A DNA stretch of 42,861 nt from the IMG/VR virus record IMGVR_UViG_3300035135_001806, positions 1-42,861 of that record. One strand, written 5' to 3'. The notes below the pieces were generated by a model. That model did no database searches, was not told where the DNA came from, and saw only the letters and a program-made list of their open reading frames with translations. Both the position numbers and the translations under genes were made by a program. The DNA comes from a virus. Its lineage: Duplodnaviria > Caudoviricetes. Of the stretch, positions 1-41,202 are shown one piece after another (the first letter of the stretch is position 1; every line of letters begins with the position of its first letter).

Positions 1-205
1 GAGATCTACAGATGTTGATCAAATGCGTGATACATTTCACACTATAACAAATGGTGCATATAGCAATCTACTGTACGAACTATTTTCAAAAGAACGTGTT
101 GAAGCAGAACTTGAAAAGTTTTTAGAGTTTGACTTCTTCCCAAGAGTCGGGGGCGGTATTGGAATGACTAGAATGATTGCCGCACTAGACAAGTTAGAAG
201 GTTAA
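1..205 (+). CDS. C-terminal part (5'-truncated by window) of an AsnA-like / class II aminoacyl-tRNA synthetase-like protein
   Basis: Frame open from nt 2 (RSTDVDQMRDTF...). Ends with FFPRVGGGIGMTRMIAAL, resembling class II aaRS motif 3 and especially AsnA (IGGGIGQSRL). Confidence 0.7.
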   Translation, partial: RSTDVDQMRDTFHTITNGAYSNLLYELFSKERVEAELEKFLEFDFFPRVGGGIGMTRMIAALDKLEG

Positions 206-329: not shown

Positions 330-358
330 TTGACTTTTATAAATAGAGATACTATATT
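330..358 (+). promoter_or_regulatory. Sigma70-like promoter with an embedded T4-late-type TATAAATA
   Basis: TTGACT (330-335), 17-nt spacer, TATATT (353-358); TATAAATA at 338-345. Confidence 0.65.
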
Positions 359-387
359 AGTATTATTAACAAAGAAGGAATATTTAC

Positions 388-435
388 ATGATTAAGACTA
401 TCAGAACAAATATTAATTGTTGGCCTCCAGGTTAG
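388..435 (+). CDS. Putative attenuator leader peptide MIKTIRTNINCWPPG
   Basis: AAGGAA SD at 375-380, ATG 388, TGT-TGG (Cys-Trp) at 418-423, TAG 433-435; followed by alternative hairpins and a terminator. Confidence 0.7.
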   Translation: MIKTIRTNINCWPPG

Positions 436-468
436 GGGTATGTCTTGACGTGAATTTTCAACGTTGTT

Positions 469-505
469 AAGCCCCTAGTAATTAGTTTTATTAGGGGCTT
501 TTTTT
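469..505 (+). terminator. Rho-independent terminator (attenuator 3:4 hairpin) directly before tRNA-Trp
   Basis: AAGCCCCTAGTAA / TTATTAGGGGCTT stem followed by a T7 run (499-505). Confidence 0.8.
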
Positions 506-579
506 GTCGGTGAAGTGTTACGGTAGCACATCAGTCTCCAAAACTGAAGGCCGGGGTTCGACTCCCTGCACCGATGCCA
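506..579 (+). tRNA. tRNA-Trp (CCA)
   Basis: Acceptor GTCGGTG/CACCGAT, anticodon arm TCAGT-CTCCAAA-ACTGA, TTCGACT loop, G73 plus CCA. Confidence 0.93.
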
Positions 580-580
580 A

Positions 581-654
581 CACCTAGTGGCAGAATGGCT
601 ATGCAACGGACTGCAACTCCGTGTATGGGGGTTCGATTCCCTCCTAGGTGTCCA
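581..654 (+). tRNA. tRNA-Cys (GCA)
   Basis: Acceptor CACCTAG/CTAGGTG, anticodon arm ACGGA-CTGCAAC-TCCGT, TTCGATT loop, U73 (Cys identity element) plus CCA. Confidence 0.93.
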
Positions 655-661
655 ATTTCGG

Positions 662-689
662 TTGACATATTAGTGTAATGTGTTATAAT
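662..689 (+). promoter_or_regulatory. Sigma70-like promoter upstream of DNA ligase
   Basis: TTGACA (662-667), 16-nt spacer, extended TGnTATAAT (681-689). Confidence 0.7.
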
Positions 690-5849: not shown

Positions 5850-6335
5850 ATGGCTTACTTTAGTACAAAAACATACGGACACAACATCGGACTTTCAGCG
5901 GTGTTCCGTCAACCAAACGCAGATCATTCACATTGTCATTTGCTACATGGTTATAGTTTGCAATTTAAATTTACATTTGGTTGTTCTAATTTAGATAATA
6001 AAAACTGGGCAGTTGACTTTGGTGGACTAAAACCACTGAAAGCATGGCTAGAAGATTCATTTGATCACAAACTATGTATCGACAAAGATGATCCTATGAA
6101 AGATGAACTGTTACTACTTGAAACAAAAGGCCTCGCAGAGATTAGACAGTTTGATGGAGTAGGTGCAGAGAAATTTGCAGAACATGCCTGGCGTTTTGCA
6201 GATAACCTAGTACGAAAAGCAACAGATAATCGCTGTTGGTGTGAATCAGCTGAATGTGCAGAGCATGGTGCAAATAGTGCTATCTATACGCCTTTTGAAG
6301 TACAGAAGATGTCTTTTGCAGATGCCAAAAATTGA
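5850..6335 (+). CDS. queD: 6-pyruvoyl-tetrahydropterin synthase / QueD-like T-fold enzyme
   Basis: HSHCHLLHGYS, VDFGGLK, FDH, AEKFAE motifs. Confidence 0.85.
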   Translation: MAYFSTKTYGHNIGLSAVFRQPNADHSHCHLLHGYSLQFKFTFGCSNLDNKNWAVDFGGLKPLKAWLEDSFDHKLCIDKDDPMKDELLLLETKGLAEIRQFDGVGAEKFAEHAWRFADNLVRKATDNRCWCESAECAEHGANSAIYTPFEVQKMSFADAKN

Positions 6336-7140
6336 TAAAGAAATTTTAACAAAAAAAGAATGGCACCGTATTAGAGAACAACGGCGCCGCGAAAAAGAGA
6401 TAGCAACTCTTGCTATCCCTGACAACAGTAATGAATATTTTGTATTATGTTTAAAGCATGGTACAAAATACTCTGCTGATTATGTAAACAAATTATTCAA
6501 TATGTGTAGACGTCATTGCACACTTGATTTCAAATTTGCTTGTATGACAGAGGATCCTTCAGGACTTGATGAAGATATAATTATCATACCTTTACCATCC
6601 TATCTGAAAGGATGGTGGTGTAAACCATATATGTACAATAAAGATCTTCCCATTAAAGGCACTATACTTTATATGGATTTAGATATTGTTATTGCAAATA
6701 ATATAGATAGGTTGTTTGAATTCCAACCAGGTTATTGGATGACTTGCAGAGATTTTACACGAGTAATGCGCCCAGGCTGGCAAAAATACAACAGCAGTAT
6801 AGTTAGATTCGCAACAGGCCAATTAGATTTTTTATGGCAAAAATTTGCAGAAGATCCTGAATTAATACAAAAACAATTTTTTGGAGATCAAGATTATCTA
6901 TATGATGAAGCAGTACGACAAGGGAAACAAGCAAGATTGTTTCCTGACGAATGGATAAGAAGTTGGAAATGGGAAGTAAGATCGGATAGAACATTTGCAC
7001 CAGGAGGCACCAAAGGAAATAGAAAACTAGCAACAATTGAGCAGGTAGAACCAAAACCAGAAACTTGTGTTTGTGTATTCCATGGTGATCCTAATCCTGC
7101 TAATTGTAATGATCCATGGGTGGTTGACAATTGGAAATAA
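6322..7140 (+). CDS. GT-A fold glycosyltransferase
   Basis: CLKHGTKYSADYV, GWWCK, YMDLD (DxD), NSSIV, GDQDYL, FHGDPNP. Confidence 0.8.
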   Translation: MPKIDKEILTKKEWHRIREQRRREKEIATLAIPDNSNEYFVLCLKHGTKYSADYVNKLFNMCRRHCTLDFKFACMTEDPSGLDEDIIIIPLPSYLKGWWCKPYMYNKDLPIKGTILYMDLDIVIANNIDRLFEFQPGYWMTCRDFTRVMRPGWQKYNSSIVRFATGQLDFLWQKFAEDPELIQKQFFGDQDYLYDEAVRQGKQARLFPDEWIRSWKWEVRSDRTFAPGGTKGNRKLATIEQVEPKPETCVCVFHGDPNPANCNDPWVVDNWK

Positions 7141-7152
7141 ATGTAGTATATT
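7124..7152 (+). promoter_or_regulatory. Sigma70-like promoter for uvsE
   Basis: TTGACA-17 nt-TATATT; suggests transcription start near ATG 7159. Confidence 0.6.
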
Positions 7153-8289
7153 ATGAGTATGGATTTGAAATTTACAACAGCAGGTGATTATTTGAAGTCA
7201 CAACAAAAGCGGATAGGTTTTGCATGTAAGTACATGCATCCTGATCAAACGCAAAAGAAGAAATTACTAGAAGAAATACAAAGGCCGCTAAATACTCGTA
7301 GCACAACAGTGGCGTGGCTAAACAGACAGACACGTGATGTTGCTGAAGAACGCTTGTGGGATATCATGACTCACAATATTGCGTCATACAAGAGGTTGAT
7401 TGAGTATGTGGGAAGCCTTCCTCCAGAGCTTCGTATGGTCCGATTGGGTAGCGATGTGCTTCCTGTTTATACCGAGCCTACTTGGAGTTATTATTGGCGG
7501 TTGCCTCATGTACGTGACTACTGTGAGAAACAATTCGCACCAGTCGGCGAAACGGCAAGAGCCCTCGATGTCCGATTATCGATGCACCCAGGCCAATTTA
7601 CTGTACTTGCAAGCGACAACCCCGAAATTGTCGAAAGATCAATCGAAGAATTTGAATATCACATAGATGTAGCGAGGTGGATGGGATATGGTAAAGAGTT
7701 TCAGGATTTCAAGTGCAATGTCCACATATCAGGCCGTAAAGGTCCAGCCGGTATCAAAGACGCACTTAAACGTCTCTCGCCAGAAGCAAGAAACTGTATT
7801 ACTATCGAAAACGACGAAAACAAATGGGGAATCGAAGCGAGTCTCGAACTTGCAGACGATCTCGCTTTGGTGCTAGACATACACCATCATTGGGTAAACT
7901 CAGGAGAATACATACAACCAAGTGATGATAGATTCCTTCGTATTGTAGACAGTTGGCGCGGAGTACGTCCTGTCATACACTACAGCGTTTCACGTGAGGA
8001 TTTACTTGTAGGACACCCTACAGATGTACAACCTGACATGGATATATTACTTGCAGGTGAATACAAAAAAGCAAAACTACGTGCTCATAGTGATTACATG
8101 TGGAATAATGCTGTTAATGATTGGGCATTAGGGTTTTGGCCATATGCAGATATAATGGTAGAAAGCAAAGCAAAAAATCTTGCAAGTATCGGCCTGCATA
8201 AATACTATACGGAGAACAATAATGAGTTATCTAAACAAAATGTACGGCAGAAAGCCTTCACAACCGGACCAGACCCAATCATCATCTAA
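7153..8289 (+). CDS. uvsE: UV damage endonuclease UvsE/UvdE (true start may be 7159)
   Basis: IGFACK, RLGSD, RLSMHPGQFTVLAS, IENDE, LDIHHHW, AHSDY, MVESKAK motifs. Confidence 0.93.
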   Translation: MSMDLKFTTAGDYLKSQQKRIGFACKYMHPDQTQKKKLLEEIQRPLNTRSTTVAWLNRQTRDVAEERLWDIMTHNIASYKRLIEYVGSLPPELRMVRLGSDVLPVYTEPTWSYYWRLPHVRDYCEKQFAPVGETARALDVRLSMHPGQFTVLASDNPEIVERSIEEFEYHIDVARWMGYGKEFQDFKCNVHISGRKGPAGIKDALKRLSPEARNCITIENDENKWGIEASLELADDLALVLDIHHHWVNSGEYIQPSDDRFLRIVDSWRGVRPVIHYSVSREDLLVGHPTDVQPDMDILLAGEYKKAKLRAHSDYMWNNAVNDWALGFWPYADIMVESKAKNLASIGLHKYYTENNNELSKQNVRQKAFTTGPDPIII

Positions 8290-8515
8290 TAAAAACCCTA
8301 ATAGGGTAACAGGTGGTTTAAAAGGACAAGGTGTAGACCATATTGTAATGGTTAGCGAAGATGGTGCAGAACAACAATTACCTAGTTTTCGATATGTACA
8401 AAGTTTAGAAGACCAAATCAGAAAACAAAGAGCGGCTATTAGCGTTCTTGAAAGAACAGTCTCCAGACAAAGTAAAACACTAGAAAGTTTAAACACTTTC
8501 GTAAGGAGTAAGTAA
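8222..8515 (+). CDS. Hypothetical protein with C-terminal coiled coil
   Basis: GGAG SD and CATAAATA late motif upstream of ATG 8222. Confidence 0.65.
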   Translation: MSYLNKMYGRKPSQPDQTQSSSNKNPNRVTGGLKGQGVDHIVMVSEDGAEQQLPSFRYVQSLEDQIRKQRAAISVLERTVSRQSKTLESLNTFVRSK

Positions 8516-8700
8516 TGTATATTGATAGCGGCAAAGATCTAAAAGTAGATAAAATAACAAGCCCAAGACCAGATAAAATTGGTTTTGGTGCTAATAGCAG
8601 AACACAAGTTCCTGTAAAACAATCTCCGTCCGTAAAAGCACAGACTAAGGCTATGAAGACCGCAGGTGCTGTTACTGCTAAAGGAGAAAAATATGCTTAA
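8515..8700 (+). CDS. Small hypothetical protein
   Basis: TAATG-coupled ORF with AGGAG SD. Confidence 0.55.
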   Translation: MYIDSGKDLKVDKITSPRPDKIGFGANSRTQVPVKQSPSVKAQTKAMKTAGAVTAKGEKYA

Positions 8701-8857
8701 AAAATGGATTAATTCTAGAATGAAGGAACGCACATCTTGGGATGGTGCGGCATTAATTTTACTAGGACTTATGGTTCTATTCTTGGCACCACTCGCAAAA
8801 ATTGCGGCAGGTATTGCTATCGCATACGGTGCATGGACAATTTGGAAAACTGAGTAA
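8693..8857 (+). CDS. Small membrane protein
   Basis: AGGAG SD before ATG 8693; ERTSWDG followed by two hydrophobic helices. Confidence 0.65.
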   Translation: MLKKWINSRMKERTSWDGAALILLGLMVLFLAPLAKIAAGIAIAYGAWTIWKTE

Positions 8858-9142
8858 ATGGTTCTTACTGTTACAGAACGTGCTAAAGATTATCTAGCAA
8901 AAGTAGGAAAGCCTAACGTATCATTATCTGTAAAAGGTGGTGGTTGTTCAGGCTTTCAATACGAATGGGGTGTAACGGACAAAGAACCAACTGTAGAAAA
9001 CCTATGGTTAGATCCTATGGCCGAAATGTTTGTGTTTGGATGTACTGTAGATTATGTAGAAGAACTAGGTGGTTCTTACCTCAAAGTTGTAAACCCTAAT
9101 GCTACTGCAAGTTGCGGATGTGGCGAAAGTTTTGCTGTTTAG
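8858..9142 (+). CDS. HesB/IscA/ErpA family Fe-S cluster carrier
   Basis: VKGGGCSGFQY and NPNATASCGCGESF motifs. Confidence 0.92.
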   Translation: MVLTVTERAKDYLAKVGKPNVSLSVKGGGCSGFQYEWGVTDKEPTVENLWLDPMAEMFVFGCTVDYVEELGGSYLKVVNPNATASCGCGESFAV

Positions 9143-26197: not shown

Positions 26198-26605
26198 TTG
26201 AGTAAAGTAGATCTAAATTCGTACATGGATTTTGTACAAGAAGTAACAAGCAGTGAAAGCAATGCTTTTGGTGCTATGAACAAACGCATGGAAGTTTTAA
26301 GTGATGCAGGTATTAATCCTGCTCTGCTTATGACTGGTGCAATAGGTATGGCAAGTGAAGGAGGAGAATTTGCAGAAATTGTTAAGAAGTGTATCTTCCA
26401 AGGTAAACCAATGGACGATGAAACTGTATTTCATTGCAAACGAGAACTTGGTGACATTATGTGGTATTGGATTAATAGTTGCCGTGCTCTTGGTTTGGAC
26501 CCTAACGATGTAGTTGCTGAAAATGTTAATAAATTAAAAGCACGTTATCCGGGTGGTGAGTTTGATGTATTTTACAGTGAAAATAGAAAAGAAGGAGATT
26601 TGTAG
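26198..26605 (+). CDS. MazG-like nucleoside triphosphate pyrophosphohydrolase
   Basis: SEGGEFAEIVKK...ELGDIMWY...NVNKLKARYP. Confidence 0.88.
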   Translation: MSKVDLNSYMDFVQEVTSSESNAFGAMNKRMEVLSDAGINPALLMTGAIGMASEGGEFAEIVKKCIFQGKPMDDETVFHCKRELGDIMWYWINSCRALGLDPNDVVAENVNKLKARYPGGEFDVFYSENRKEGDL

Positions 26606-27276
26606 TGAGTACAATTACAGAAGCACGTGAACAATATGATTTAGGTTTGCGTGAATTTATGCTAAACATGTATAATCACACCGCGGCAGGACTTGCTGTT
26701 AGTGGTATAATCGCATGGTTAGTATATTCAACAGGATTGCTTTTTGCAATGGCCAACTCTATTTGGTTGTTTGCATTTGCACCTTTAGGAATGATTATTT
26801 GGTATTCTTTTGCAGGACGAAATTGGTCATATGATAAATTAAGAACATTTTATTATGCATTCACAGCAGTAATGGGCGTAGGACTTGCTCCTATTTTTGC
26901 AGTGTACACTGGTTACAGTATTACCCAAGTATTCTTTATAACAGCCGCGACATTTGCTGGCGCAAGTTTATGGGGATATACTACGAAACGTGATCTTACC
27001 GGATTCGGTCATTTCTTGTTTATGGGATTAATTGGTATTATTATCGCAAGCATTGTTAATTTGTTTATGGCAAGTTCAGCTCTTATGTTTACAATTAGTA
27101 TTTTAGGTGTTTTTATCTTTACAGGATTAACAGCATGGGATACTCAAAATGCAAAAACTATATATCGTAATCATGGCGGTGATCCTAGATATGGTATCCA
27201 ATTTGCAATCAGCTTATATTTGAATTTTATCAATTTATTTCAAATGTTACTTGCTCTTTTGGGCAATCGTGAATAA
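26605..27276 (+). CDS. Bax inhibitor-1 / YccA family membrane protein
   Basis: About 7 TM helices; GLREFMLNMYN, GYTTKRDLT, TAWDTQ, LYLNFINLF. Confidence 0.9.
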   Translation: MSTITEAREQYDLGLREFMLNMYNHTAAGLAVSGIIAWLVYSTGLLFAMANSIWLFAFAPLGMIIWYSFAGRNWSYDKLRTFYYAFTAVMGVGLAPIFAVYTGYSITQVFFITAATFAGASLWGYTTKRDLTGFGHFLFMGLIGIIIASIVNLFMASSALMFTISILGVFIFTGLTAWDTQNAKTIYRNHGGDPRYGIQFAISLYLNFINLFQMLLALLGNRE

Positions 27277-29269: not shown

Positions 29270-30174
29270 TGACAAACCCTGTTTATTTATTTTTACATAT
29301 TCCCCGTACAGGAGGAACATTTATTGAACACGCTGTAGGACATTGGTCAGATCGTGAAAAAGATAGATATTTACAGCAGTATAATTATGTGCAAAATTGG
29401 TCTGAAAAGGCTTATGAAAATCATAAAATTCCTAATTTGATTTACAGAACAACAGAACAACAACGCCAAATTAAAATTATGACTGGTCATAGTATATTTT
29501 GTAATAGCCATAGATGGTTAAGGATTCAAAGAGAACCAAGAATATTTTCTACTATAAGACATCCTGTAGAAAGATGTTTGAGTTCTTTCAATTACAGGCA
29601 TTCATTAGCAACCTTAACACAAGATCCATCATCATTTGCACTAAGCACTCCGTTTATGAACGAAAATGCTTGTCACCAAAGGAAAGTAGCAAGCGACTAT
29701 GATACATTATGGGAATATTACCAAGATTCTACTTTTGAAAGTAATATTCAATGTAAATGGTTAATCAAAAGTTTTTTACACAGAGAAAATGATACTTGGC
29801 AAAGACATCCTGTTTATGTGTTCGGTCCAGATGCAGGTATTCCTGCAGAACAAGCAGTGCCACTGACCTGGCCACAATGGATGTTTTATCCACCTATCGA
29901 AGAAAAAGAAATTGATTGGTACAAACTAGCTGAAAATTTCTTCCCAGAAATTTGGTGGCTGACAAGGACCGAGATGTTGAATACTAGTATTAAGGACTTT
30001 TGTAACTATGCAGGTTTAGAGTTTATGAATACAGGAATAAAAAATGAAAGTATCAAGCAATACTGGACCTTAGATGATGTAAAAAAACAACCTGATATTC
30101 AAAAATTAATCGATGCAGAAATGTATGACTACCAATTATACGAAACTGCAAAACAATGGAAGAGGCCATTTTAA
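29269..30174 (+). CDS. Sulfotransferase family protein
   Basis: [10 protein letters not shown] (5'-PSB loop) and [14 protein letters not shown] (3'-PB). Confidence 0.78.
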
Positions 30175-30175
30175 T

Positions 30176-30529
30176 ATGACATATCTAGTAAACGAAAACT
30201 GTATCAAATGCAAACACATGGATTGCGTAGAAGTTTGTCCTGTAGATTGCTTTTACGAAGGCGAAAACATGCTAGTAATACATCCAGATGAATGTATTGA
30301 CTGCGGTGTTTGTGAGCCTGAATGCCCTGCAGATGCTATCTTACCTGGCAATCAGTTCAGTCCAGAAGAAGAAGTAAAGTGGGAAGAAATCAATAGAAAG
30401 TACGCAGACCTTTGGCCAAATATTACACAAGTACGCAAAGAAGACGTCCCTTCAGATGCAGAAGAATGGAATGGAGTACCAAATAAATACCCAGAACACT
30501 TTAGTGAAAAGCCAGGCAGAGGTGACTAA
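30176..30529 (+). CDS. fdxA: 7Fe ferredoxin (FdxA type)
   Basis: [18 protein letters not shown] and [12 protein letters not shown]. Confidence 0.92.
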
Positions 30530-31197
30530 TGCCCTTTGAAGACAATGTACTTGAATTACCTTTCTTTACAGAAGAAGAATGTGATAGCATAAAACAGTAT
30601 GCTTATAATATAGAAAAAGAACTTATAGATAATGGCTATGAGGATTTTGAAGGTAAGGAACGCACTCTGGGAAATGTTGTGACAACAAATAATTACTTCA
30701 GGTACAATTTCTTTGCGGCACATCCACATTATGCAGATAGATTTGCAGACTTTTTAAGTCAAACCAATCACGATTTAGAATGGCCTGTGGTTGTGCAGAG
30801 TTGGGTAAATGTCTATAGAAAAGGACAAGGTATTGATTGGCACAATCATCACGGATGGATGGGCAAAAGTTTTAGTGCAAATATATTCATAGACGGTCCA
30901 ACAAAACCTGGTATTACATATAAACCGTTTAACGAGAAAGCAGTTGTTAAAGAAAACAAAAAAGGTTGGATTCATGTTTTTCCGTGCGAGCTTTTTCATA
31001 TGGTTCCGGCGGTACAAGAAGATCAAGATAGGATCACTGTAGGAATTACCGTTCATAGTTATCAATATGTAACACAACAAGTTTTAGATCAAATAGCATT
31101 CAATAGTAGGCTATTTCAAGATAAGATTATTTTAACAAAGGAGCATCATGTTAGAGAAAACTTTCAATCTCAATCACATGAAAAAAGTTCGATGTAG
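30529..31197 (+). CDS. 2OG-Fe(II) oxygenase-like protein
   Basis: SWVN...WHNH...FPCELFHMV...RITV. Confidence 0.7.
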   Translation: MPFEDNVLELPFFTEEECDSIKQYAYNIEKELIDNGYEDFEGKERTLGNVVTTNNYFRYNFFAAHPHYADRFADFLSQTNHDLEWPVVVQSWVNVYRKGQGIDWHNHHGWMGKSFSANIFIDGPTKPGITYKPFNEKAVVKENKKGWIHVFPCELFHMVPAVQEDQDRITVGITVHSYQYVTQQVLDQIAFNSRLFQDKIILTKEHHVRENFQSQSHEKSSM

Positions 31198-31507
31198 TCA
31201 TATTTTGCTTAGTTATGATGAAGCAATTAATAGTACGCATAGCAGAGGATTATTTTTTGCAGTTTTTGAAGCAAAAGAAATTATAAAAGAATTGAAAGAC
31301 GGTAAGATTAGTTGGGAGAAAGCAGTCAAGGAACACAGTGCCTGCGAGCATAGCTGGTATAGAGATGGTGACTTAGGATGGTTTGATCTCAATGATGGTG
31401 TAACTCCAGAATTATATAATGCATGCCTTATACACCAAGTAGGCGATTTGCTAGACGAGCCAATACAAAGCCCATACGGACTACACATTATTCATAGGAC
31501 AGGTTAA
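31148..31507 (+). CDS. Parvulin-type peptidyl-prolyl isomerase
   Basis: VRCSHILL, GDLGWF, SPYGLHII. Confidence 0.88.
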   Translation: MLEKTFNLNHMKKVRCSHILLSYDEAINSTHSRGLFFAVFEAKEIIKELKDGKISWEKAVKEHSACEHSWYRDGDLGWFDLNDGVTPELYNACLIHQVGDLLDEPIQSPYGLHIIHRTG

Positions 31508-32034
31508 TGATAGATATAATAGATGATTGTATACCAAAAGAATTACAAGATTATTACGAAGCAATTACTTTAGGTATGACTAGTAATGTTGAAATAGAAC
31601 CAAGTGTTGAATTTAAATGCAAATATGAGCCCACAGCATTTACAGAAACAACAAAGCCCATTAGTTTCAAACATGTTTTAAAAAGCAGTGCAGAGTATAG
31701 TAATCACCTTGTAAATTTTAGCAAAATTGCAACAACAGTAATGCCAAGTCTACAAAATGTATTATTTGCAAGAATATTTTTAACTGTTCCATATAAAACA
31801 GAAATGACACACCATGCTCCGCATGTTGATTTAGATTTTCCGCATAAAAGTTTAATTTATTATGTAAATGATTCAGAAGGTGATACAGTTTTCTTTGAAA
31901 AAGATTATGAAACCGTAATAGACTCTGTAAAACCTAAAAAGGGACGAGCTGTGTTATTTAATGGGTTGATACCGCATGCCGCTGGTATACCAACACATTC
32001 ACCAAGATGCATTGTAAACTATAATTTGATATGA
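31507..32034 (+). CDS. 2OG-Fe(II) oxygenase-like protein
   Basis: PHVD, YYVNDSEGDTVF, FNGLIPHA, RCIVNYN. Confidence 0.8.
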   Translation: MIDIIDDCIPKELQDYYEAITLGMTSNVEIEPSVEFKCKYEPTAFTETTKPISFKHVLKSSAEYSNHLVNFSKIATTVMPSLQNVLFARIFLTVPYKTEMTHHAPHVDLDFPHKSLIYYVNDSEGDTVFFEKDYETVIDSVKPKKGRAVLFNGLIPHAAGIPTHSPRCIVNYNLI

Positions 32035-37657: not shown

Positions 37658-38473
37658 ATGGATTACTATGAACGTCTAGGAGTGTCTCGAAATGCTTCCT
37701 CTTCAGATATTAAAAAAGCCTATAAAAAACTTGCTCTGAAACACCATCCAGACAAAGGTGGTGATCATGCAACATTTGCAGAAATCAATGAAGCATATAA
37801 TACATTAAAGGATCCAGAGAAAAAACAAGAATACGATAATCCTCAGACCCAGTTTCATTTTAACACAACGAACCCTTTTGAAGGAGGAATGGGTGGAAAT
37901 TTTGAAGATATATTTGCAAACTTTGGTTTCAATATGGGAAGGAGACAACAACGTAATCAAGATGTGCATATAACTTATCCTATAGATTTTAAAGAAGTTT
38001 TTACAGGTACAGCAGTAAATATACAATTTAATTTACCTAGTGGTAAAAAAGAATATCTAGATGCGGCAATACCTCCTGGAGTAGATCACGGGAGTCAGGT
38101 TAGATATGCTGGATTAGGTGACGATTCGATTCCTAATTTACCAAGAGGTAATTTAATATTACGTATTAAGGTTCGTTCAGATCCTGACTGGAAACGTGAT
38201 GGCATTAATATATATACAACAAAGACTATTAATATTTTTGATCTTATTTTAGGAATTTCTATGGAAATAAAGACGCCAAGTGGTAAAAATTTTAGCCTAC
38301 ATATACCGCAAGGAACAAAGCCTGGAACAACATTTAGCATAACAGGACACGGAGTACCTGATGTAAATACAAATAGAGCAGGGAATGTATATGTAAAACT
38401 TAATGCACATATACCTTCACTAACACAAGCTCAACTAATGAAAATAAAAGGAATAAAAGATGGAACTTATTAA
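37658..38473 (+). CDS. DnaJ-family co-chaperone without Zn finger (CbpA-like)
   Basis: J domain DYYERLGV...HHPDK, G/F region, DnaJ C-terminal domain. Confidence 0.9.
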   Translation: MDYYERLGVSRNASSSDIKKAYKKLALKHHPDKGGDHATFAEINEAYNTLKDPEKKQEYDNPQTQFHFNTTNPFEGGMGGNFEDIFANFGFNMGRRQQRNQDVHITYPIDFKEVFTGTAVNIQFNLPSGKKEYLDAAIPPGVDHGSQVRYAGLGDDSIPNLPRGNLILRIKVRSDPDWKRDGINIYTTKTINIFDLILGISMEIKTPSGKNFSLHIPQGTKPGTTFSITGHGVPDVNTNRAGNVYVKLNAHIPSLTQAQLMKIKGIKDGTY

Positions 38474-38969
38474 AAGCCCAGACCCATGGTTACAAACAAA
38501 AGTAAAACCATTTTTCTTTTCTGAAATGGATGCAAAATTAATTTCAGGTGAAATGTGCAAAATAATGATGGCAAAAAATGGACTAGGCTTGAGTGCCAAT
38601 CAAGTTGGACTAGATGCACAGATTTTTGTAATGAGACCAATAGAACACAAAGAAATCACTAAACCATTTGCTGTTATCAATCCAGAAATATTAGAAGTAA
38701 GTGAAGAAACAGTTCTTGCAAAAGAAGGGTGTTTAAGTCATATAGGTTTGGTATTAAATATAAGAAGACCAAGGAGTTTGGTAGCCAAATTTCTTGACAT
38801 AGACGAGAAAGAATGTATACTAGAGTTTACAGGTATAGATGCAAGATGTTTTGCTCACGAATTTGATCATCTGCAAGGTATTGAATTTATAGACAGAGTA
38901 TCTAGACTGAAATTAGATATGGCAAAAAAGAAGCAAAAAAAGTTAATGCAGGAGTTAGTTAATGGTTGA
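38460..38969 (+). CDS. def: Peptide deformylase
   Basis: GLGLSANQVG, EGCLS, HEFDHLQG. Confidence 0.95.
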   Translation: MELIKSPDPWLQTKVKPFFFSEMDAKLISGEMCKIMMAKNGLGLSANQVGLDAQIFVMRPIEHKEITKPFAVINPEILEVSEETVLAKEGCLSHIGLVLNIRRPRSLVAKFLDIDEKECILEFTGIDARCFAHEFDHLQGIEFIDRVSRLKLDMAKKKQKKLMQELVNG

Positions 38970-41202
38970 GCCGTCAAAGGACCTTCAATTAGTTTTTGAT
39001 AAAAGTATCAAGGACGCCAAAAAATTAGGACATGAATTTGTAACATTAGAACACTTATTGTTTGCAATGATGTGTAGTGATAGTTTTTACAATCTATGTA
39101 AAGGCTTTGGTGCAGATGTTGATTTCTTAAAAAGTAATCTTGAACATCATCTCAAAAATGAAATGAATGAAATTAAAATAGAAGATCCTAAATATAAACC
39201 TAAAAAAACACAGACTGTAGAACGCTGTCTTAACAGAGCATTTACACAAGTGTTATTTGCAGGGCGTCCAAACATTGAACTAAGTGATGTTGGATTAAGC
39301 ATACTTTCTGAAAAGAAAACCCATGCTAATTACTTTATGGAAAAAGCAGGCATCGAAAAAGAAAAATTTGCAGAATATTTGCAAGCGGAATTTGAAACTG
39401 GATTTGAAGATGAAGAAATTAGTGGTGCGGCGGCTAGAGCATTAAGAGCTTTTACAACTAATCTTAATGATCAGGTAAAAAATGAAAAAATAGATCCTGT
39501 TATTGGTAGACAAGAAGAACTAGATAGTATTGCACTTGCACTAGGTAGACGTAGCAAAAACAATGTGCTGTTAGTAGGCGATCCTGGTGTAGGTAAAACT
39601 GCTATTGCAGAAGGTATGGCTTTTAATATTGTTCAAGGCAACGTTCCAGAATTTTTAAAAGAATTCAAAGTCTATAATTTAGATATTGGTGCAATGTTGG
39701 CTGGTTCAAAATACAGAGGTGATTTTGAAGAACGTTTTAAACTTGTTCTAGCAGGATTGAAAAAACAAGGCAAAACAATTATGTTTGTTGATGAGGCACA
39801 TATGATGAACGGTGCAGGAGCAGGTGGGGGGCAAAGCTCTAACGATCTAGCAAACATGCTTAAACCTGCACTTACAAAAGGTGACTTAAAAGTTGTTGCT
39901 TCAACCACTTGGGAAGAATACAGAAAATATTTTGAAAAAGACCGTGCCTTAATGCGGCGTTTCCAACGTGTAACAGTTGATGAGCCTTCTCCAGAAGTTA
40001 CTAACGACATACTCAACGGCATCAAAAAATACTACGAAGATTATCATGCTACAGAAATTACACAAGAAGCAATTGATGAAGCAATTAAATTAAGTGTAAA
40101 ATATCAAGCAGATAAAAAACTTCCTGACAAAGCAATTGATTTGATTGATCAAGCATGTTCAAGATTTAATTTGCTTCCTAAGGTAGAAAAGAAAATTGTG
40201 ACAGCAGAAAATATCCAATTTGAATTAGCAAAAGCAGTAAACTTACCAACAGAACAAGTTGCTGAAAAAGAAACTGAAAATCTTGCTAATCTAGAACACA
40301 ATATCAAAGGCCAAGTCTACGGACAAGATAAAGCAGTTGAAGATGTGGTAGACAAAATCCTTGTAAGTCAAGCAGGACTGAAAGCAAGTGATAAACCTAT
40401 TGGTGCATTTGTGTTTATGGGTCCAACAGGCACAGGTAAAACAGAGACTGCAAAAGCTCTTGCAAGTAATTTAGGTGTCAAACTTGTGCGTTTTGATATG
40501 AGTGAATATCAAGAACGCCATAGTGTAAGTAAACTTTTAGGTTCGCCTCCAGGTTATGTAGGACATGAAGAAAAAGGTGGCTTACTAATTGAACGTTTGC
40601 AAGAAAATCCTAATTGTGTGCTACTTCTTGATGAAATAGAAAAAGCACACCCAGACGTATCACAAGTATTGTTACAAATTATGGATAATGGTAAGGTTAC
40701 AGGATCAAACGGTAAAGAAGCTGATGCACGTAATTGTATCCTTATCCTAACAACCAACTTAGGTGCTGCCGAAGCTGAGAAAAACAACATTGGCTTTATG
40801 GAAGACTTTGAAAAAGAATATGAAGACGGAGCATTGAAGAAATACTTTGCTCCAGAATTTAGAAACAGATTAGACGGCGTTGTAACATTTGCAAAACTAA
40901 GCAAAGAAACTATGATGAAAATTGTAGGCAAGTTCTTGGTTGAATTAAAAGATATGGTAAAGGATAAAAATGTTAAAATCACTGTTAGTGATGAAACATT
41001 AGACTACCTTGTTGAAAAAGGATTTGATCCTAAGATGGGTGCAAGACCTTTACAACGTGTTATTGATAGAGAAATCAAACGTAAATTAGCTAGAGAACTA
41101 TTGTTTGGTGATCTTAAAGACGGCGGCAACCTAAATGTTAATATTGCCAAAGGCGAAATAGTTTTAGAGACCAAAGGAACAAAAGTTGTTGAAAAGGTTT
41201 GA
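38962..41202 (+). CDS. clpA: ClpA-like ATP-dependent Clp protease ATPase subunit
   Basis: Clp N-domain, two AAA+ modules (GDPGVGKT, GPTGTGKT), KYRG and GYVG pore loops, IGF loop, no ClpB middle domain. Confidence 0.9.
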   Translation: MVEPSKDLQLVFDKSIKDAKKLGHEFVTLEHLLFAMMCSDSFYNLCKGFGADVDFLKSNLEHHLKNEMNEIKIEDPKYKPKKTQTVERCLNRAFTQVLFAGRPNIELSDVGLSILSEKKTHANYFMEKAGIEKEKFAEYLQAEFETGFEDEEISGAAARALRAFTTNLNDQVKNEKIDPVIGRQEELDSIALALGRRSKNNVLLVGDPGVGKTAIAEGMAFNIVQGNVPEFLKEFKVYNLDIGAMLAGSKYRGDFEERFKLVLAGLKKQGKTIMFVDEAHMMNGAGAGGGQSSNDLANMLKPALTKGDLKVVASTTWEEYRKYFEKDRALMRRFQRVTVDEPSPEVTNDILNGIKKYYEDYHATEITQEAIDEAIKLSVKYQADKKLPDKAIDLIDQACSRFNLLPKVEKKIVTAENIQFELAKAVNLPTEQVAEKETENLANLEHNIKGQVYGQDKAVEDVVDKILVSQAGLKASDKPIGAFVFMGPTGTGKTETAKALASNLGVKLVRFDMSEYQERHSVSKLLGSPPGYVGHEEKGGLLIERLQENPNCVLLLDEIEKAHPDVSQVLLQIMDNGKVTGSNGKEADARNCILILTTNLGAAEAEKNNIGFMEDFEKEYEDGALKKYFAPEFRNRLDGVVTFAKLSKETMMKIVGKFLVELKDMVKDKNVKITVSDETLDYLVEKGFDPKMGARPLQRVIDREIKRKLARELLFGDLKDGGNLNVNIAKGEIVLETKGTKVVEKV

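Follow-up and report, generated by a model that had tools for sequence, protein, structure and literature searches.

Locus anatomy and genomic setting

The window analysed in the present study, that is, the whole 42.9-kb contig with a GC content of approximately 36%, carries genes for DNA ligase, a clamp loader, ThyX, PhoH, a Clp ATPase, DnaJ, and peptide deformylase, as well as a 2728-amino-acid protein with a T4 gp9/10-like N-terminus. Among cultured phages, PhoH and the clamp loader matched best to the jumbo phages PA5oct/Paride and Atu_ph07, at approximately 50–55% identity, and relatives with a 77–100% identical ligase lay on IMG/VR contigs of up to 268 kb. The source of the window is an uncultured jumbo phage, and the labels of runs sharing small proportions of words with it hint at a marine phage. 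Host-like accessory genes were observed at positions 5850-8860, 26605-27276, 30113-32034, and 37658-41202; the accessory products comprise a PTPS/QueD-like protein, UvdE, an Fe-S assembly protein, a Bax-inhibitor-like membrane protein, ferredoxin, PPIase, 2OG-Fe(II) oxygenases, DnaJ, peptide deformylase, and Clp ATPase. The features of the locus are as follows.

2..205 (+): 3' end of a gene resembling the AsnRS catalytic domain, an open reading frame (ORF) whose full-length relatives have 273-281 amino acids
212..312 (+): tRNA-like gene with a GTT anticodon and a 29-nt variable arm (Rfam tRNA model, 45.9 bits in a local scan)
330..358 (+): promoter-like site of the sigma-70 type, TTGACT at 330-335, a 17-nt spacer, and TATATT at 353-358 (10/12 consensus)
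339..345 (+): ATAAATA motif within this promoter, likely a late-promoter box
372..379 (+): Shine-Dalgarno-like purine run, with AGGA at 376-379; comparable runs lie 5' of the starts of homologues
388..435 (+): leader ORF MIKTIRTNINCWPPG*, 15 sense codons from ATG at 388 to TAG at 433-435
418..420 and 421..423 (+): control codons TGT and TGG of the leader ORF, adjacent and in frame
387..428 (+): region 1 of the predicted 1:2 structure, pairing 387-398 with 442-452 and 423-428 with 435-439
432..452 (+): region 2, with the G-run 435-438 and the conserved GTCTTGAC; predicted 5' arm of the antiterminator
446..466 (+): inner hairpin of the predicted antiterminator, from folding and the alignment of homologues
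469..505 (+): intrinsic terminator, with the 3:4 stem at 469-500 and seven T at 499-505
471..478 (+): region 3, common to the terminator and the antiterminator
506..579 (+): tRNA-Trp(CCA), first gated gene, beginning on the base right after the T-run
581..654 (+): tRNA-Cys(GCA), second gated gene, from tRNA prediction
662..689 (+): sigma-70 promoter (12/12) of the DNA ligase gene (719-2047), ending the gated block

An earlier, sequence-only reading of this DNA had described the promoter, the Shine-Dalgarno sequence, a 15-codon ORF with TGT-TGG, and a terminator abutting tRNA-Trp and tRNA-Cys, and all of these are present where it had placed them. The match at 330-358 is by itself at chance level, as the first 4 kb contain 11 sigma-70-like sites against 11.5 expected. 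Under the codon usage of the phage, an adjacent pair of Cys and Trp codons would occur in 14 codons with a chance p of approximately 0.001, and the leader is not a chance product because it is conserved in 142 distinct copies.

Conservation of the element in related phages

Loci were gathered through flanking proteins and DNA patterns; three of the pattern scans ignored the tRNA sequence and one used it. A profile search of 547 loci gave 345 matches, from which 142 distinct complete elements were obtained; 13 of the 345 were excluded (seven with a truncated or variant terminator, five cut at the 5' end, and one weak). The promoter, leader ORF, and terminator recur in these 142 copies, which are on marine viral and metagenome contigs. 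Conservation of the ORF and of its Trp codon, on which the sequence-only reading had staked its proposal, was found throughout, with an in-frame TGG in 142/142 elements. The first tRNA past the terminator is tRNA-Trp(CCA) in 140 of them, the remaining two being cut by contig ends. In a protein-led set, the element lay upstream of tRNA-Trp in 30 of 42 distinct regions; by-eye reading of the 12 distinct tRNA-Trp loci without it placed a promoter directly 5' of the tRNA in 11. A terminator stood directly 5' of the first tRNA of a block in 95 of 144 cases where this was tRNA-Trp and in none of 141 distinct cases where it was another tRNA, in a sample enriched for the element.

The first 65 distinct leaders, in which start codons (ATG or GTG) were assigned by a rule independent of TGG, showed TGG at codon 10-13 and a distance from TGG to the stop that was a multiple of three in 62, and TGG occurred zero and three times in the two other frames. 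C, W, and P were conserved in 56, 65, and 65 of the 65, respectively. A single W was present in 53 leaders, and a second W inside region 2 in 10. As a rule, the control window holds one TGG and several different control codons consecutively, rather than at least two codons per amino acid. The stop of the leader in the window is 13 nt upstream of the position used by 62/65 distinct leaders, and a ribosome at this early stop would still cover the G-run. The window belongs to one of three stop-shifted lineages, all of which have the stop on or just past region 2; its stop variant is represented by L001 and L081, which are identical and may be the same data.

In cultured phages, a blastn search with positions 1-720 gave matches to the upstream gene and the tRNAs and none to the leader. 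One exact pattern, which diverged versions could escape, had three matches in bacterial and archaeal genomes, none with the architecture. Rfam held no family for the leader: only the tRNAs reached threshold, the best non-tRNA score over the leader was below 20 bits, and neither Trp_leader nor any other leader model matched at its gathering score.

Promoters and transcription

The promoter pattern was present upstream of the leader in 124/142 homologues. Of 134 distinct upstream regions, 95 contained the motif ATAAATA, where 13 were expected; among 88 promoters behind blocks, only 2 had it. The window carries 12 copies on the plus strand (at 339, 8198, 9460, 17810, 21253, 24108, 33722, 36962, and four more positions) and one on the minus strand, and several lie 25-50 nt 5' of gene starts. 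ATAAATA, which resembles the T4 late-promoter box, is likely the late promoter of the phage, and transcription of the leader probably starts at the sigma-70 site early in infection and at the ATAAATA box later on.

A separate promoter past position 440, named earlier as the arrangement that would speak against attenuation, did not appear, since nothing promoter-like lies between 440 and the tRNAs in the window. The TTGAC of region 2 was considered as a possible internal promoter and rejected, the pattern being found in only 5/142 homologues and not in the window.

PA5oct is reported to lack an RNA polymerase gene and to have TTGAC/TATAATA promoters and factor-independent terminators (bioRxiv 10.1101/679506). 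Because of these traits, host-type transcription, and hence attenuation, is plausible for this phage group. The word shares of the RNA runs were all small, at most 0.13; four of the 20 listed (X1, X3, X7, and X10) yielded short contigs of relatives, mostly less than 95% alike, and no transcript ends.

Mutually exclusive RNA structures

Because the helices are alternatives and shift in register, no single consensus can capture them: from a MAFFT alignment, RNAalifold returned nothing beyond the terminator and a hairpin of 3 bp. Helices 1:2, 2:3, and 3:4 were therefore counted one by one on an alignment of 65 rows. The three helices are mutually exclusive and conserved, and the compensatory changes that the sequence-only reading had suggested looking for were found in 1:2 and in the 3:4 terminator stem. 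The 1:2 helix was 88.8% paired, and its pair at the start codon was A-U in 53 and G-C in 12 rows, tracking the change from ATG to GTG, which may reflect few events. Region 1 folded with its own region 2 at -12.4 kcal/mol, compared with -10.0 kcal/mol when swapped and -4.6 kcal/mol when shuffled. Four pairs of the terminator showed changes on both sides. The G4:C4 core of the antiterminator was 98% paired and nearly invariant (one cell changed on both sides), and is without covariation support of its own.

In the window, the terminator stem 469-500 had a predicted free energy of -19.7 kcal/mol (z -6.8). The antiterminator proposed earlier, with its inner hairpin, was also predicted, since the pairing of 432-439 with 471-478 together with the hairpin 446-466 is the minimum free energy structure of 430-481 (-15.4 kcal/mol, z -2.35). 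The weak 1:2 protector of that proposal is real as the pairing of 423-428 with 435-439, but is only part of a larger structure, the helix 387-398:442-452 that encloses it.

When transcripts were cut before region 3, the 1:2 helix formed in 113/114, and the G-run paired with the CC after TGG in 106/114. Folding was then constrained by a ribosome footprint, assumed to extend from 21 nt behind to 7 nt past the end of the codon, with seven leaders with variant C-runs left out (n = 107). Folding with part of the leader blocked had been suggested by the sequence-only reading. The antiterminator formed in 107/107 with the footprint on TGG and in 2/107 when it lay at the stop. In RNA free of ribosomes and ending short of the 3' arm of the terminator, the antiterminator won at equilibrium in 98/107, and in full-length RNA the terminator won at equilibrium in every ribosome state. 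These equilibria suggest that the decision of the switch would be kinetic, as it is in known attenuators (PMC1183508). On termination by default in an untranslated leader (super-attenuation), the predictions diverge, with 1:2 forming first in 113/114 and 2:3 winning at equilibrium in 98/107.

Leader codons follow the tRNA cargo

Under the initial rule, by which a block was defined by gaps of at most 300 nt, tRNA-Cys lay behind 69 of 93 leaders in which a Cys codon adjoined the Trp codon and behind 0 of 15 in which it did not; among the new leaders of the second collection round, the figures were 29/40 and 0/5. tRNAs for Arg and Glu had no codon match, and each was behind its own promoter. The later rule, by which a block ends at an intervening promoter, was adopted after these mismatches had been seen. 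A complete block was then available in 121/140 cases, corresponding to 108 distinct leader/block combinations, and CAT-anticodon tRNAs were assumed to be AUA readers.

A cognate leader codon upstream of region 2 was present for 171 of the 174 non-Trp tRNAs in the blocks, whereas shuffling gave 128.8 ± 4.1 matches and 0 of 10000 shuffles reached 171. tRNAs behind their own promoter had a cognate leader codon in 2/16 cases. Leaders with the codon were distributed as follows, with the tRNA present and absent in the block, respectively.

Cys codon and tRNA-Cys: 65/65 and 29/43
Codon for tRNA-Ile(TAT): 14/14 and 23/94
Codon for CAT-anticodon tRNAs (AUA): 13/13 and 24/95
Codon for tRNA-Ser(TGA): 13/14 and 44/94
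Codon for tRNA-Gln: 9/9 and 45/99
Codon for tRNA-Tyr: 5/5 and 44/103
Pro codon and tRNA-Pro: 49/49 and 55/59 (not significant)
Codon for tRNA-Gly(TCC): 0/2 with the tRNA present; these leaders have GGT, not GGA or GGG

The relation is a nested one, in that the codon is implied by the presence of its tRNA in the block but can outlast loss of that tRNA. The covariation of leader codons with downstream anticodons proposed by the sequence-only reading was thus found, as the Cys counts show. Its restriction of sensing to Trp and Cys was too narrow, since both are tracked but tRNAs for Ile(AUA), Ser, Gln, and Tyr are tracked as well. Pro was not supported as a control codon, as it does not track tRNA-Pro; its conservation is probably due to its CC bases, which pair with the G-run in the folds described above.

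Within the stretch from Trp-4 to Trp+2, the match was found in frame 0 for 163/174 tRNAs and in the other frames for 11 and 6, with z scores of 11.7 in frame 0 and -3.8 and -1.1 in the others. The match extends to synonymous codons. Leader Ile codons near TGG were ATA in 41/41 cases with an AUA-type tRNA downstream and ATT in 54/59 cases otherwise; the leader in the window has ATT and ATC, and its block is without an AUA reader. Such an in-frame synonymous match to neighbouring tRNA genes leaves little room for explanations other than selection for how fast the codons are decoded.

Relatedness was controlled for in several ways. Permutation within clusters was significant in 14/16 settings; the two non-significant ones (362 and 546 of 5000) were at the tightest cut with the second measure, where 108 rows fell into 87 clusters. 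In nearest-neighbour pairs, the own block was favoured over the swapped one by 21:0, and by 19:2 with the second relatedness measure. Tree-based independent pairs for Cys only gave 5.2:0 with a median p of 0.0625, on a weakly resolved tree along which the Cys codon changed 14 times. Among near-identical sisters, L342 has TGT in the leader and tRNA-Cys in the block, and L359 has GGT in the leader and tRNA-Gly in the block.

Neighbouring RNAs

The DNA of 2..205 matches genes annotated as 'tRNA ligase' in P-SSM2 and P-SSM7. Neither ARAGORN nor the Rfam scan of the entire window picked up the GTT tRNA-like gene at 212-312, and the sequence-only reading had missed it as well. Both genes lie upstream of the switch and do not belong to it. 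A GTT tRNA directly 3' of a short AsnRS-like gene was observed in 74/97 loci, with a variable arm of 13-37 nt in 48 of 49 distinct copies. In the window, this long arm (255-283) ends in a CTGCAA loop resembling the anticodon loop of tRNA-Cys.

At L350, L053, and L347, a structured RNA of 88-99 nt lies between the terminator and tRNA-Trp, with a hairpin capped by a CTGCAA loop and a complementary TTGCAG loop nearby, so that kissing loops are possible; Rfam had no match for these inserts. Further structured non-tRNA inserts in gated blocks were observed at both L347 and L370 (120 nt after tRNA-Trp), at L354 (255 nt before the first called tRNA), and at L368 (81 nt), and belonged to no Rfam family at E up to 1. 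Long variable arms also follow from the gene lengths of tRNA-Trp(CCA), 85-88 nt, and tRNA-Ile(TAT), 94 nt, in relatives (L015 299-386, L031 2268-2355, L014 2187-2271, and L002 610-703). With a lowered threshold, ARAGORN called tRNA-Ser with the anticodon ACT, which has an unusual A34, at L027 272-361, L042 1489-1578, and L057 637-726. A manA-RNA-like sequence (49.6 bits, gathering score 55.2) lies amid upstream tRNA genes on the minus strand of L350 (1179-1387).

Proposed mechanism and alternative explanations

Considering the codon/cargo match, the conservation, and the alternative pairings, we propose that the element is a ribosome-mediated transcription attenuator that senses the supply of tRNA in a feedback loop and thereby gates the phage tRNA-Trp/tRNA-Cys block, a reading to which we assign a probability of roughly 0.85. 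That it is a functional attenuator is very likely. In the following scenario, it is inferred that the leader is translated, that ribosomes stall on it and throw the switch, and which way control runs. The leader would be transcribed by the host RNA polymerase. When TGT-TGG is decoded fast, the ribosome would reach the stop and cover the G-run 435-438; after its release, the 1:2 helix would hold region 2, the terminator would form, and no tRNA would be made. When there is little functional tRNA-Trp or tRNA-Cys, a ribosome halted on 418-423 would mask the CC strand that shields the G-run; the G-run would then be free to pair with 472-475, so that the terminator would be blocked and both tRNAs transcribed. 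The new tRNA-Trp and tRNA-Cys would relieve the pause, giving negative feedback. Several consecutive codons, one per tRNA, may constitute an OR-gate for severe loss of any tRNA of the block, and the event sensed may be the destruction or dilution of host tRNAs during infection, more than the amino acid level. Defence nucleases, a general decay of tRNA, or late demand may each lie behind such a loss.

The same attenuator might instead serve to sense starvation of the host for Trp or Cys, as the trp and his leaders do. The architecture is that of starvation-sensing leaders (PMC1183508), and uncharged tRNA would stall the ribosome at the same codons. However, the leaders track the isoacceptor and not the amino acid (ATA 41/41, ATT 54/59), have a single codon per tRNA instead of a run, and control a product that would supply no amino acid. 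We therefore consider this purpose improbable. The isoacceptor tracking, and the fact that more tRNA cannot make up for missing amino acid, make tRNA supply the likelier signal; amino acid starvation, one of the triggers that the sequence-only reading had offered for a shortage of functional tRNA, is the less likely purpose.

It is still less probable that the ORF encodes a functional small peptide with a Cys-Trp-Pro motif, or that the leader is a small RNA with its own terminator, and that the tRNAs are made by unregulated leak-through. The conservation of C, W, and P and the equilibrium preference for the terminator in all states would fit such a view, and action in trans is known both for leader peptides and for attenuator RNAs (PMC7968998). 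However, a peptide function cannot choose synonymous codons by the neighbouring tRNA genes, the C-terminus of the peptide varies freely, including in the three frame-shifted lineages, and the conserved antiterminator pairing is left unexplained.

A ribosome-independent, T-box-like switch, with direct pairing of leader triplets to the anticodons or CCA ends of tRNAs, could draw on the complementarity of TGG to both the Trp anticodon and the CCA end. We regard it as highly implausible, given that no T-box or other riboswitch in Rfam matched even at E 10, that the match is in the one frame set by the Shine-Dalgarno sequence, start, and stop, with changes in length that keep the frame, and that several triplets side by side match different tRNAs. 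Shared ancestry of adjacent DNA, with the leader as a general sensor of translation speed or of translation being on, scarcely deserves credence either: leader and block do lie within a few hundred bases and are co-inherited, and the Cys-only tree test fell short (median p 0.0625), but the match persisted within clusters (14/16) and in matched pairs (21:0 and 19:2), and the sisters L342 and L359 differ in TGT and GGT along with tRNA-Cys and tRNA-Gly.

Under the tRNA-supply attenuator, marine jumbo phages would carry a multi-input tRNA thermostat whose leader is rewritten when a tRNA is gained or lost by the block, and which senses when particular host tRNAs disappear, anticodon nucleases being one possible cause, and turns on replacements. 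We consider this wider scenario probable, with less assurance than the attenuator itself. It has long been asked why phages have tRNA genes, with codon bias, the replacement of degraded host tRNAs, and escape from tRNA-cutting defences among the answers. A switch of this kind would imply that phage tRNAs are an on-demand reserve, and the leader sequence would be an evolutionary read-out of the tRNAs that limit infection. The element is a compact (180-nt) candidate sensor of tRNA pools that can be tested with reporters and would be re-programmable, and the family offers natural experiments in sister leaders with a one-codon, one-tRNA difference.

Comparison with known systems

Phage tRNAs can replace host tRNAs lost to tRNA-cleaving defences, as in T5 against PARIS/AriB, and in some cases the phage's own copy of the tRNA seems to be expressed at too low a level for rescue (PMC12409363). 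The T5/PARIS case concerns tRNAs for Lys, Thr, and Asn, and regulation of the transcription of phage tRNAs is not described in the available text of that source (PMC12409363). Full-text literature searches, mostly of papers outside subscription journals, turned up no description of tRNA genes under the control of a leader-peptide attenuator.

Ribosome-mediated attenuators are known for trp, his, leu, thr, ilvGMEDA, ilvBN, as well as pheA, and the classical leaders have two or more control codons (PMC1183508). Like the E. coli trpL class, the phage element has a short leader, probably translated, of similar length (15 codons) and with control codons; regions I-IV with the alternatives I:II, II:III, and III:IV; an intrinsic terminator; and a stop positioned so that a ribosome there would block II:III. 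Unlike that class, it belongs to a phage and gates tRNAs only, the next protein gene having its own promoter; its leader has one control codon per tRNA, and its main I:II helix includes the start codon. The trp/his-type architecture claimed by the sequence-only reading consequently holds for the ORF, cognate codons, helices, and geometry, but not for repeated control codons or for an enzyme or synthetase as the output.

T-box riboswitches also choose between a terminator and an antiterminator by the status of a tRNA. The phage leader, unlike these, has no T-box fold or Rfam match (E up to 10), and the evidence points to translation of the ORF.

The thr and ilvGMEDA attenuators are multivalent, with several kinds of control codon feeding one switch, and the pheST attenuator controls a synthetase, which is part of the translation machinery. 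The phage element differs from all three in that its set of control codons appears to be re-tuned in each phage to the tRNA cargo, down to synonymous codons, and in that its product would be the very tRNA that reads the control codon, closing a direct negative-feedback loop. Ribosome-mediated attenuation would thereby reach beyond enzyme operons to include tRNA genes, and would take in viruses.
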